From an uncultured Gammaproteobacteria bacterium (lineage in GTDB: Bacteria > Patescibacteriota > Patescibacteriia > UBA2196 > GWA2-42-15): 64,000 bases of DNA. The position numbers and the translations under genes were made by a program. The notes under the pieces are model-generated. The model made no database searches and was not told the DNA's origin. It was given only the letters and a program-made list of their open reading frames with translations. The stretch lies in NCBI GenBank assembly GCA_964573135.1, contig CAZNIO010000006.1:1733-65732 (forward strand), read 5' to 3'. This document shows positions 38,318 to 40,451 of the stretch, piece after piece (positions within the stretch are counted from its first letter, which is position 1; every line of letters begins with the position of its first letter).

Positions 38318-39385
38318 TTATTTCGTAATTAATTTCCAGCTTAACGGTGTACATTTTTTTATATTAGATTTAGCTAACATGCCGTTAACTTGCTTGTAGT
38401 ATTTGGGCTCAAGCCCTGCCCCAGGCCTGACTGATCTGAAATTTTTATTGAAAACTAACTTGTCCCCTTTTTTAATATCCTGACTTGCAAAAAGAGATTT
38501 GCGATAAGAGGCAGCAGCCTTTTCTCCTTTTGTAGCTGTGTAGGTTGGCCTGCCGAGGGCTTGTTCGATTTTTCTAACTGCATCTACCATGGATTTAAAT
38601 TCAGCTGGCTCTAGCGAGAAAGCAGAGTCAACCTCCTTTTCTTTTCGACTAAGGCAAATGTGCTTTTCAATAATGCTGGCGCCAAGTGAAACGGCGGCAA
38701 TACTGATTTCATCACCCAAACTGTGGTCTGAAAGACCAGAGACAACTTTAAATTTGAGGGTGATGTCAGGGATGGTAAGGATATTCATTTCTTGTGATTT
38801 GGCTGGGTATGAACTAACGCAGTGCAGGACAGCTAGAGCGGGGCAGCCATTATCTTTGAGGGTTTTAATGGCTAGCTTTATATCTGCAATAGTAGAAGTT
38901 CCGCGAGAAATGATAACTGGTTTTTTGGTTTTACCAATGCGCTCAAGCAAAGGGATGTCAGCTACTTCTAGAGAGGCCACTTTGTACATAGGTACTTTTA
39001 TCTTTTCCAAAAAATCTACGGCAGTATAATCAAAGGGAGATGAGAAAAAAACTAATCCTTTGGACTCAGCATATTTTCTTAATTTTAAATGCCACTCCCA
39101 AGGAGTATGAGTTTTCTCATAATGTTGGTGAAGGCTTTTACCATCCCATAATCCACCATCTTTGATTTGAAATATTTTACTCTGGCAATCCAGAGTAATG
39201 GTATTACCCTTAAAAGTTTGGAGCTTGACAGCATCAGCGCCGACCTTGGCGGCGGCATCAACTATTTTACACGCCTTAGCATAAGAACCACCGTGGTTAC
39301 CAGATATTTCAGCAACAATAAAGCAGGGTTGATTAGGACCGATAGTTTTTTTACCTTGGGGAGTGTGGATTATAAATTTATTCAT
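38318..39385 (-). CDS. NeuB-family nonulosonic-acid synthase (PseI/LegI/NeuB-like) with a C-terminal SAF domain
   Basis: KKTIGPNQPCFIVAEISGNHGGSYAKACKIVDAAAKVGADAVKLQTF is the NeuB core. C-terminal SVRPGAGLEPKYYKQVNGMLAKSNIKKCTPLSWKLI is SAF-like. Confidence 0.85.
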   Translation of the reverse strand: MNKFIIHTPQGKKTIGPNQPCFIVAEISGNHGGSYAKACKIVDAAAKVGADAVKLQTFKGNTITLDCQSKIFQIKDGGLWDGKSLHQHYEKTHTPWEWHLKLRKYAESKGLVFFSSPFDYTAVDFLEKIKVPMYKVASLEVADIPLLERIGKTKKPVIISRGTSTIADIKLAIKTLKDNGCPALAVLHCVSSYPAKSQEMNILTIPDITLKFKVVSGLSDHSLGDEISIAAVSLGASIIEKHICLSRKEKEVDSAFSLEPAEFKSMVDAVRKIEQALGRPTYTATKGEKAAASYRKSLFASQDIKKGDKLVFNKNFRSVRPGAGLEPKYYKQVNGMLAKSNIKKCTPLSWKLITK

Positions 39386-39389
39386 ATGC

Positions 39390-40451
39390 TTATCCTAAAT
39401 CATGGTCAGTGCATTTTTTGCAATGATCTATTTTGTACATTTCTCCTTTTTCGTTTAATTCTAATATCTTTTTTCTCTCGGGAGAATTCCAGATATCATA
39501 AACTGAATTTTCTTTAATATTACCAAGCAAAATTTCACTGTTATACGCGGCGTCACATGGCTGAATATCTCCATTGGAAACAATGAAGCAATCACCACGG
39601 GTAATACGCCAACATTTTTTGACCATAGACGGACGCTCTCTTTTTAAGCCATATTTATTATTGGGCAAATTGGCATATTCGAGGGTATTAATGCTGACAA
39701 CCTCTCCGGTGTTATAGAAAGTTTCTAAAAATTCATCAATATTATCATGGGTCCCCTCTTGATCAATCATTTGGATATGCAGGCTTGGACCCTTGCCTAA
39801 TTCTTTTTTCTTTTTAATTAATAGATCAGCATTGGCTCTGACTTTCTTGTATAAATATTTGGGTGAAACAAATCCGAAAGTATCCTCATTGGTACCATGC
39901 AGAGAAAAATTCATAAAAGTAATGCCGGAATTTAAAATAAAATCAATTTTTTCTTCATCTAAGGCAACACCATTGGAACTGAACCAAATCATGCCAAGAT
40001 TCTTTTTGGCTGAAACGTAGTTAACAATTTCCTGCCAATCGGGGTGTAAAAGTGGTTCGCCTAAATGAAATAACCAAACTCCCTCCACGCCATATTGATC
40101 CAGTTCATCAACTACTTTTAAGTAGAGATCTTTATCAAAATCAATAGAGGGTCGCTTTAAATTTTGACGAGGGCACATACGACAGTCCATATTGCATCGG
40201 GATGTCATCTCCAAGAGAATTCGATTGGGGAAATCAGTGCGCTTGGACCAGTCTTTATCAGAAAAACGGCGGATGGGGATAATTTTCAACCCAGCTTTGG
40301 CGTATTTCTCTAATAAGTCCCTGTTGTCTTGGTCAGCAATCAGTTCTAACTGCTGATTAACCTTGATTTGCTTTAATTTTTTTAATTCCAAAAAATTGAT
40401 TGGCTTATCAAATTTTCCTTGAATATATTTTTCTGTTTTTATAAATTCCAT
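39390..40451 (-). CDS. radical SAM / SPASM-domain enzyme
   Basis: LLEMTSRCNMDCRMCPRQ (CxxxCxxC). C-terminal CWRITRGDCFIVSNGDIQPCDAAYN...DHCKKCTD is a SPASM-type auxiliary-cluster Cys pattern. Confidence 0.8.
   Translation of the reverse strand: MEFIKTEKYIQGKFDKPINFLELKKLKQIKVNQQLELIADQDNRDLLEKYAKAGLKIIPIRRFSDKDWSKRTDFPNRILLEMTSRCNMDCRMCPRQNLKRPSIDFDKDLYLKVVDELDQYGVEGVWLFHLGEPLLHPDWQEIVNYVSAKKNLGMIWFSSNGVALDEEKIDFILNSGITFMNFSLHGTNEDTFGFVSPKYLYKKVRANADLLIKKKKELGKGPSLHIQMIDQEGTHDNIDEFLETFYNTGEVVSINTLEYANLPNNKYGLKRERPSMVKKCWRITRGDCFIVSNGDIQPCDAAYNSEILLGNIKENSVYDIWNSPERKKILELNEKGEMYKIDHCKKCTDHDLG

Follow-up and report, generated by a model that had tools for sequence, protein, structure and literature searches.

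We analysed a 64,000-nt stretch of DNA (the window; contig CAZNIO010000006.1, positions 1,733-65,732) from an uncultured bacterium, with best hits in Patescibacteria. Our subject is module 2 (window coordinates 38318-40451), an interval filled by two tightly packed minus-strand open reading frames (ORFs) that encode a predicted PseI-type nonulosonic-acid (NulO) synthase and a radical S-adenosylmethionine (SAM) enzyme, here called rSAM2 (Table 1). A reading of the letters alone (the sequence-only reading) had described a second radical-SAM plus NeuB unit at this place, flanked by a PseH-like GNAT and a methyltransferase, and our annotation agrees: the adjacent ORFs carry PF04055/PF13186 and NeuB/SAF domains, a GNAT acetyltransferase lies downstream and a Methyltransf_23 protein upstream, and the four genes are separated by 1, 4 and 9 nt. 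The GNAT scored 78 bits on the TIGR03585 PseH model against a cut-off of 93 and is PseH-like only. Two plus-strand ORFs antisense to the module (38589..39029 and 39167..39517) had coding scores of non-coding sequence, and no Rfam family was found in the whole window. As described below, the rSAM2-PseI pairing is conserved and not a chance adjacency, which suggests that the making of sialic-acid-like sugars includes a step not yet described. A second radical-SAM and synthase pair, module 1, lies near 23483-27015.

The synthase matched NeuB (PF03102) over residues 41-279 (E 6.8e-84) and SAF (PF08666) over residues 296-352 (E 5.6e-8), so that the C-terminal SAF domain that the sequence-only reading had ascribed to it is present. 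With this NeuB plus SAF architecture and 426 bits on the TIGR03586 PseI model (cut-off 340), the protein is predicted to be a PseI-type nonulosonic-acid synthase.

rSAM2 matched the Pfam models Radical_SAM (PF04055, E 1.3e-17, 64.9 bits against a gathering threshold of 29.5) and SPASM (PF13186, E 2.5e-12, 47 bits) and reached no curated cut-off among the NCBIfam models. Across 35 aligned orthologues (36-77% identity) seven Cys were invariant: C86, C90 and C93 of the CX3CX2C motif, which are also invariant in 38 locus-derived orthologue sequences, and C280, C299, C344 and C347. The C-terminal region of rSAM2 holds Cys only at 280, 288, 299, 344 and 347, and the protein stops six residues after C347. 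The sequence-only reading had credited it with a full SPASM-type Cys pattern; the strings CWRITRGDC, QPCDAAYN and DHCKKCTD are indeed there, but the pattern is not full, as only four C-terminal Cys are invariant and the CX2CX5CX3C...C half of the seven-Cys SPASM motif (CX9-15GX4C...CX2CX5CX3C...C) is missing. Those four align one-to-one with the Cys of the three BtrN motifs msC, lpC and lCknC, which we take to be the ligands of its single auxiliary cluster (structure 4m7t). The alignment therefore argues for a Twitch domain rather than a full SPASM domain, and the Pfam SPASM model still matches because Twitch is an abridged SPASM. Our prediction for rSAM2 is a radical-SAM enzyme of Twitch type that carries a single SAM-binding [4Fe-4S] cluster and, held by four Cys, a single auxiliary cluster.

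The best solved relative of rSAM2, by sequence profile and by modelled fold, is BtrN, the 2-deoxy-scyllo-inosamine (DOIA) dehydrogenase of butirosin biosynthesis (4m7t/4m7s). A profile of the 35 orthologues ranked BtrN first among solved proteins (E 1.3e-19) and MoaA next (9e-7). The AlphaFold2 (AF2) model had a pLDDT of 93.4, and its top Foldseek match in the PDB was BtrN 4m7t (E 4.4e-14, TM 0.71 on the length of BtrN), followed by SuiB, SkfB, DesII, MoaA, anSME, BlsE, EpeE and viperin, with SpeY and CteB also among the matches; all best-ranked matches were radical-SAM enzymes. The likeness covers the radical-SAM core and Twitch domain with its four aligned Cys; the substrate of BtrN is a small carbohydrate-like molecule. 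In contrast, identity is about 20%, rSAM2 carries some 75 additional residues as a conserved N-terminal domain and in most cases a Cys at position 288, and BtrN belongs to an aminoglycoside cluster whereas rSAM2 sits in pseudaminic-acid (Pse) biosynthesis. The substrate must differ. Both identity and cluster context thus speak against a BtrN orthologue (DOIA dehydrogenase), and by analogy rSAM2 may work like BtrN without being BtrN.

Many SPASM-domain proteins are peptide or protein maturases, and the Pfam label on the C-terminal domain, together with SuiB, SkfB, CteB and anSME among the Foldseek matches, would fit an enzyme that modifies the protein target of the glycan or a small peptide and sits in a sugar operon for co-regulation only. 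This is highly improbable, since rSAM2 has a single predicted auxiliary cluster of BtrN type, we saw no conserved small ORF or recognition-element domain, the gene lies within a Pse operon across about ten phyla, and a cytidylyltransferase appears to be fused to its relatives in the spiro-SPASM family (see below).

To follow the pairing across genomes, we scanned one genome per GTDB species for rSAM2 and kept the best 80 of 220 relatives, which comprised 34 orthologous loci and 46 distant paralogues (individual loci carry L numbers). Relatives of the window proteins were located in these loci by tblastn, and the counts that follow come from the 25 orthologous loci whose flanks reach 6 kb or more on each side (full-flank loci); these represent about ten bacterial phyla and one archaeon. 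Members of the full set of 34 belong to Patescibacteria, Desulfobacterota, Omnitrophota, Nitrospirota, Chloroflexota, Verrucomicrobiota, Elusimicrobiota, Binatia, Rhodocyclaceae, Rhodospirillales and the archaeon Methanoperedens. Homologues with 45-48% identity sit in the same cassette in Desulfonema magnum, Acetobacterium (within a flagellin/Maf island) and Saganbacterium. Both the PseI-type synthase and the cytidylyltransferase were present in 23 of the 25 full-flank loci, WbqC and Methyltransf_23 in 21 each, the class-III aminotransferase in 20, PseC in 19, PseB, the GNAT and an oxidoreductase of the aldo-keto reductase (AKR) or GFO type in 17 each, and PseG in 14. The consensus gene order was PseB-PseC-AKR-CTP-AT3-PseG-MT23-rSAM-GNAT-WbqC-PseI (CTP, cytidylyltransferase; AT3, class-III aminotransferase; MT23, Methyltransf_23). 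The immediate neighbours of rSAM2 were the methyltransferase (present in 28 of the 34 orthologous loci; median gap 48 nt) and the GNAT (present in 21; median gap 36 nt). No PseI lay within 10 kb of the orthologue in L037. As a control, the 46 distant relatives (24-31% identity) lacked the N-terminal domain, matching just residues ~72-347, and had no Pse context, with the exceptions of a Brocadiaceae locus (L068, with PseI, WbqC, PseB and PseC) and scattered single matches; the N-terminal domain is kept in the Pse-linked orthologues only. We conclude that the pairing of rSAM2 with PseI is conserved.

The window itself resembles the canonical PseB/C/H/G/I/F pathway of Campylobacter and Helicobacter in that PseI and PseC (TIGR03588, 443.8 bits against 423.5) score above their cut-offs and that it also encodes a PseH-like GNAT and a cytidylyltransferase; the related loci additionally share PseB and PseG with that pathway. 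It differs in that PseH and PseF fall below their cut-offs, the cytidylyltransferase matching the PseF model at its N-terminus only (35 bits against 206), and in that PseB and PseG are not recognisable in the window (best PseB score 29 bits against a cut-off of 408; no PseG match by tblastn). A cupin and a short-chain dehydrogenase/reductase (SDR) of epimerase/dehydratase type, encoded just before PseC, may replace the dehydratase/5-epimerase activity of PseB. To the canonical set the cassette adds the radical-SAM enzyme, WbqC, the methyltransferase, the class-III aminotransferase and an AKR or GFO oxidoreductase.

Gene fusions bear on the stage at which rSAM2 would act. In Desulfonema magnum (L001, 4757..6847) the cytidylyltransferase is fused to the class-III aminotransferase in one 696-aa protein. 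The NCBIfam family TIGR04321 'spiro-SPASM' (510 positions; spirochaete by its name) aligns with rSAM2 over positions 220-504, and its positions 12-227 match the cytidylyltransferases of the Saganbacteria (E 8e-9) and Acetobacterium (E 1.6e-7) cassettes, so that this family looks like a fusion of the cytidylyltransferase and rSAM2 gene types. rSAM2 itself is not a member (69 bits against a cut-off of 250), and here the genes are separate and rSAM2 has its own N-terminal domain. SpsF-type cytidylyltransferases, known from the sps pathway of Bacillus, are cytidine monophosphate (CMP)-NulO synthetases. Together, the fusions and the SpsF role therefore place the radical enzyme and the aminotransferase beside CMP-activation, after PseI. 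Tailoring at the CMP-NulO level has a precedent in PtmG, which converts CMP-Leg5Ac7Ac to its acetamidino form (PMC3766260).

An earlier stage was also considered, in which rSAM2 would act before PseI on a uridine diphosphate-linked 4-keto- or 4-amino-6-deoxy-hexose, as an anaerobic substitute for, or an addition to, an early PseB/PseG-like step. The lack of PseB and PseG orthologues in the window would suit such a role, as would the presence among the Foldseek matches of DesII, which acts on a nucleoside diphosphate-4-amino-4,6-dideoxyhexose. However, PseB and PseG usually coexist with the radical-SAM gene (17 and 14 of the 25 loci) and the fusions connect rSAM2 to the cytidylyltransferase, a late step. 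Moreover, deamination of the DesII type would strip the group destined for N7 of Pse, and yet the synthase still scores as PseI; for this reason we rejected a DesII-like deamination of the PseC product, and we regard action before PseI in general as improbable.

Based on these results, rSAM2 is very likely a dedicated sugar-tailoring Twitch enzyme of a Pse-type pathway. More specifically, we put a probability of roughly 0.5 on module 2 being the core of a conserved 'extended pseudaminic-acid' cassette with a pathway-dedicated, BtrN-related Twitch enzyme that probably oxidises or epimerises a carbinol carbon. What the data show is the fold class of the enzyme, its cluster-binding residues, and the synteny and fusions of the genes; we infer a substrate, a position of attack and a fate for the radical as follows. 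PseC, the PseH-like GNAT and PseI would build a Pse-type nonulosonic acid, and the cytidylyltransferase would make the CMP-sugar. Reductive cleavage of SAM would give a 5'-deoxyadenosyl radical, which would take a hydrogen from a hydroxyl-bearing sugar carbon. In Pse, whether free or linked to CMP, this carbon is most likely C4 or C8, the free carbinols of CMP-Pse. As in BtrN, oxidation via the auxiliary cluster would then convert the substrate radical to a ketone, and the ketone would be turned into an amino or epimeric derivative by the co-conserved class-III aminotransferase or by an NAD(P)H oxidoreductase (AKR, GFO or SDR). The methyltransferase, GNAT, WbqC and FemAB-like enzymes could then decorate the product. 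In butirosin biosynthesis the ketone product of BtrN is subsequently transaminated, and at least one gene for an aminotransferase, AKR, GFO or SDR occurs in 22 of the 25 full-flank loci. On this analogy, the narrower proposal that rSAM2 is a dehydrogenase feeding a transaminase or reductase is a tentative one, possible and somewhat short of probable.

Several observations weigh against the extended-cassette reading. Identity to BtrN is only about 20%, and the chemistry of a radical-SAM enzyme cannot be read from its fold. The window has no recognisable PseB or PseG. The orthologue in L035 has no Pse genes within 6-10 kb. Two loci (L030 and L031) contain neither the aminotransferase nor AKR/GFO, nor a detectable SDR, and the partners are thus not obligatory. 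The trio of cytidylyltransferase, AKR and aminotransferase is also found without any radical-SAM gene (L006) and therefore may be an independent sub-module. Finally, the residue at position 288 covaries with the absence of the aminotransferase and AKR/GFO, which is not predicted by a simple picture of a dehydrogenase that feeds a transaminase.

Residue 288 (39588..39590) sits between the first two auxiliary-cluster Cys and is Cys in about 90% of the 35-orthologue alignment. Among the 38 locus-derived orthologues, seven had another residue while keeping all seven cluster Cys, namely Ala in L030, L031, L032 and L037 and Phe in L038, L042 and L043; BtrN has Ala at the aligned position. The Ala288 loci are exactly the four full-flank Pse-type loci without both the aminotransferase and AKR/GFO, and they split between two separate lineages in a neighbour-joining tree. 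Two of them, L032 and L037, have SDR genes directly after the radical-SAM gene. Loci that bear the aminotransferase mostly have Cys288, and this Cys may mark a mechanistic subtype.

A thiol at this position raises the alternative of a single-enzyme radical epimerase similar to NeoN or EpeE, in which Cys288 would return a hydrogen to the opposite face and so invert a stereocentre of Pse or of a hexose precursor, giving a non-canonical NulO. Besides the prevalence of C288 in the Twitch domain, EpeE is among the Foldseek matches, and only the core Pse genes are constant as partners, which fits a step without a helper enzyme. However, with Ala or Phe in 7 of 38 cluster-intact orthologues, Cys288 cannot be essential as hydrogen donor throughout the family, so that a purely epimerising role loses support, and BtrN is far closer to rSAM2 than any epimerase is. 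We consider this alternative rather unlikely.

The oxidoreductase genes would also suit a radical dehydratase or deoxygenase similar to AprD4, where the hydroxyl beside the radical would be lost and the resulting ketone reduced by AKR, GFO or SDR to give an additionally deoxygenated NulO. AprD4 and AprD3 provide a precedent for a radical dehydratase paired with a reductase; AKR or GFO genes occur in 17 of the 25 loci, SDR genes come directly after the radical-SAM gene in L032 and L037, and in module 1 the radical-SAM gene (rSAM1) overlaps an SDR gene. That said, among the fold matches we saw no closer likeness to diol dehydratases than to BtrN, and in L030 and L031 there is no oxidoreductase nearby, so we judge this chemistry quite unlikely.

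The methyltransferase, as the nearest neighbour of rSAM2 at a median gap of 48 nt, suggests a further alternative in which a radical enzyme that forms C-C bonds or methylates would act with it to yield a C-methylated or chain-extended ulosonic acid. In Magnetospirillum gryphiswaldense, ulosonic acids that have a C10 backbone, are linked to CMP and lack known genes have been reported (bioRxiv 10.64898/2026.04.20.719630). This is very unlikely for rSAM2, which shows no cobalamin-binding, HemN-like or RlmN-like feature in Pfam or NCBIfam; the adjacent methyltransferase in this island is an ordinary class-I enzyme; and M. gryphiswaldense is not among the best 80 of 220 relatives, the orthologues kept from Rhodospirillaceae and Rhodospirillales being from other organisms.

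Radical chemistry on sugars or nucleotide-sugars is shared with DesII, AprD4, NeoN, BlsE and SpeY, all of which are more distant from rSAM2 than BtrN is, and we know of none of them from a nonulosonic-acid pathway. To our knowledge, all known steps of nonulosonic-acid biosynthesis use polar (non-radical) chemistry. We found no paper that links radical-SAM enzymes with pseudaminic, legionaminic or other nonulosonic-acid/NeuB biosynthesis. The novelty would lie in a Pse pathway to which a radical step of tailoring has been added.

Table 1. Features of module 2, the surrounding gene array and module 1 (window coordinates)
Feature	Coordinates	Strand	Details
PseI-type synthase (predicted)	38318..39385	-	355 aa
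NeuB domain of PseI	38549..39265	-	PF03102
SAF domain of PseI	38330..38500	-	PF08666
rSAM2	39390..40451	-	353 aa; BtrN-like Twitch radical-SAM (predicted); PF04055 + PF13186
N-terminal domain of rSAM2	40227..40451	-	~75 aa; beta-beta-alpha-beta; high pLDDT
CX3CX2C motif of rSAM2	40173..40196	-	C86, C90, C93; predicted ligands of SAM-binding [4Fe-4S] cluster
Twitch domain of rSAM2	39411..39614	-	C280-X13-G294-X4-C299 ... C344-X2-C347, plus variable C288
GNAT N-acetyltransferase, PseH-like	37819..38316	-	PF13302
Class-I SAM methyltransferase	40461..41354	-	Methyltransf_23
WbqC-family protein	41351..42055	-	PF08889, E 2.4e-69
Class-III aminotransferase	42056..43345	-	GSA-aminomutase-like; PF00202
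Cytidylyltransferase	43365..44114	-	CTP_transf_3 family; presumed CMP-NulO synthetase; PF02348
GFO/IDH/MocA NAD(P) oxidoreductase	44117..45094	-	AKR in its place in most related loci
FemAB-like acyl/aminoacyl transferase	45748..46845	-	PF13480 + TIGR04421
Second DegT-like gene, divergent/degenerate	46846..47859	-	337 aa
PseC aminotransferase	47862..48971	-	TIGR03588
RmlC-like cupin + SDR epimerase/dehydratase	48986..50364	-	cupin 137 aa; precede PseC
ABC exporter	50396..52180		just upstream of the minus-strand array
Bac_transf priming transferase + Wzy_C/TPR protein			beyond the low-coordinate end of the array
NeuB1	23483..24553	-	SAF-less NeuB-family synthase
N-terminal extension of NeuB1	24344..24553	-
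rSAM1	24569..25462	-	second Twitch radical-SAM (predicted), family other than that of rSAM2
SDR + NeuA/PseF-like cytidylyltransferase	25437..27015	-	module 1; PseF model 128.7 bits, below cut-off

Both modules belong to one array in which, from 50364 down to 23483, all genes lie on the minus strand with spacings of -26 to +48 nt. The FemAB-like protein has a weak PDB match to an aminoacyl-tRNA-dependent peptide synthase. The divergent DegT-like protein resembles DegT-family aminotransferases only centrally (local matches over residues ~50-170, two of which extend to residue 254), and relatives of it are present in L014, L032 and L043. WbqC has no solved relative by sequence, and in the literature we found nothing functional on it. 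We considered WbqC as a PtmG-type enzyme that forms an acetamidino group, and the methyltransferase as PtmH-like, and dropped this candidate, PtmG being a paralogue of PseA. The array also holds several methyltransferases, a carbamoyltransferase and an OTCase-like protein. Two further minus-strand genes (31704..33017 and 34959..36476) encode proteins without a Pfam match that match the NCBIfam domain of BFO_1060-family glycosyltransferases and also TIGR04396 'surface carbohydrate biosynthesis protein'; each is a candidate for the transfer of one of the two ulosonic acids. Between the modules (28589..31694, minus strand) lie genes for an OTCase-like carbamoyltransferase and a 728-aa carbamoyltransferase of NodU/CmcH type, accompanied by a GmhA-like SIS protein (28007..28585) and an EamA transporter, and these carbamoyltransferase genes suggest a carbamoylated sugar.

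Module 1 pairs rSAM1 with a second NeuB-family synthase, NeuB1. rSAM1 has seven Cys that are invariant in 28 sequences, its top PDB match is again BtrN (E 3.5e-8), and its family (about 285 aa) keeps 67-82% identity across bacteria and DPANN archaea. In a census of 23 metagenomic loci whose flanks reach 3 kb or more on each side, rSAM1 was accompanied by a SAF-less NeuB in 22, a cytidylyltransferase in 21, a B12-binding radical-SAM protein in 15, Methyltransf_23 in 10, and an SDR and a class-III aminotransferase in 7 each; the same linkage pattern occurs in Kuenenia and other genomes. rSAM1 is 25% identical to rSAM2 and the two synthases are 33% identical to each other. These low identities and the separate conservation therefore argue against a duplication: modules 1 and 2 are two distinct conserved cassettes.

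The sequence-only reading had given the module 1 synthase an N-terminal extension of about 70 aa and no recognisable SAF tail, and had called its divergence from the module 2 synthase notable. NeuB1 does have about 70 extra N-terminal residues and a NeuB domain at residues 105-340, and domain mapping found SAF in the 38318 ORF and none in or after the 23483 ORF. The contrast in SAF therefore stands, but the absence is not notable in itself, since SAF-less NeuBs are already described and common: PDB 6ncs (290 aa), a solved protein that NeuB1 matches at E 5e-43, is one, and in a survey of 13,941 NulO synthases SAF was found in only 70%, with whole branches, among them 'environmental' ones, lacking it (PMC8208679). 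The NeuB1 core belongs to a large SAF-less family of about 289 aa (homologues 284-295 aa, 65-75% identity across phyla), to which NeuB1 adds its extension. In other contexts, members of this family have genes for a SIS isomerase and a HAD phosphatase as partners and no radical-SAM gene, so that pairing with rSAM1 holds only in a sub-population.

A mis-called start, with a SAF domain present after all, had been raised as an explanation of the extension. We found that the extension has a coding score of 0.36 in frame, while the two other frames give -0.45 and -0.49 and windows of true genes 0.42 +/- 0.16, that a start including it leaves a 15-nt gap typical of this operon and is also the public gene call, and that no SAF domain follows; the extension is probably translated and lineage-specific, being in none of the 120 best homologues. 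Structural modelling of it, also proposed earlier, gave a low-confidence helix and hairpin (residues 1-36, block-mean AF2 pLDDT ~55-67) and then a disordered Pro/Ala/Gln-rich linker (residues 37-66, below 50). A subset of the SAF-less NeuB homologues (P0183, P0211 and P0217; L091, 384..1412) has a conserved ribbon-helix-helix-like N-terminal extension of about 55 aa, which is unrelated to that of NeuB1.

The public gene model of rSAM1 (P0241, 261 aa) begins with 'MCGRRK' within CX3CX2C, losing two of the three cluster Cys; the ORF runs further upstream, and from the fit of homologues the start is probably the ATG at 25432. The B12-binding radical-SAM genes that accompany the triad of rSAM1, SAF-less NeuB and cytidylyltransferase (15 of 23 loci; census loci L094-L165) are candidates for making C-methylated higher-carbon ulosonic acids such as the M. 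gryphiswaldense compounds, reported with no genes assigned. A link between the free-amine NulO of Kuenenia and the rSAM1 cluster of this organism (L008) was considered and dropped, as a 2026 preprint assigns this sugar to a different, Leg-like cluster with a deacetylase. PseI-type and SAF-less NeuB-type synthases also occur together in L024 and L161 (a Verrucomicrobia metagenome-assembled genome and a metagenome contig).

Nonulosonic acids, among them sialic, pseudaminic and legionaminic acid, shape the surfaces and flagella of bacteria, their recognition by phages and their evasion of immunity. With a confidence just below even, we suggest that the two parallel though unrelated-looking Twitch families, rSAM2 with PseI and rSAM1 with a SAF-less NeuB, each co-evolve with their own synthase and CMP-transferase and define unrecognised radical steps. 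The products would be chemically undescribed nonulosonic or higher ulosonic acids (for example keto, extra-amino, epimeric or C-modified) and their producers mainly known anaerobic lineages, with candidate-phyla bacteria and DPANN archaea among them, and this bacterium would display two such sugars. Mass-spectrometry surveys of environmental microbes have detected CMP-activated nonulosonic and higher-carbon ulosonic acids with structures and genes unassigned (bioRxiv 10.1101/2020.12.03.409086, 10.64898/2026.04.20.719630). The Pse-embedded radical-SAM enzyme, found in about ten bacterial phyla and one archaeon, offers a tangible candidate for chemistry of this kind, next to the second family with its tight linkage to a SAF-less NeuB. 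Both families are testable because cultivable carriers exist (Desulfonema magnum and a Desulfovibrio sp. isolate). The array further indicates that candidate-phyla bacteria, whose genomes are small, devote about 28 kb to a pair of distinct acidic sugars in activated form.

Elsewhere in the window, a gene for MetK (SAM synthetase; 12829..13986, minus strand) lies about 10 kb from the island, where both radical-SAM enzymes and seven or more SAM-dependent methyltransferases are encoded. No Pfam match was found for an ORF of 1144 aa (3442..6876, minus strand), around which the AT skew is strong (-0.34), or for three ORFs on the plus strand at 8328..11577 (406, 208 and 429 aa). At the edge of the glycan island, genes for a VTC-domain protein and a DUF4956 protein (58269..59717, minus strand) form a polyphosphate-related pair that adjoins a polysaccharide deacetylase gene.

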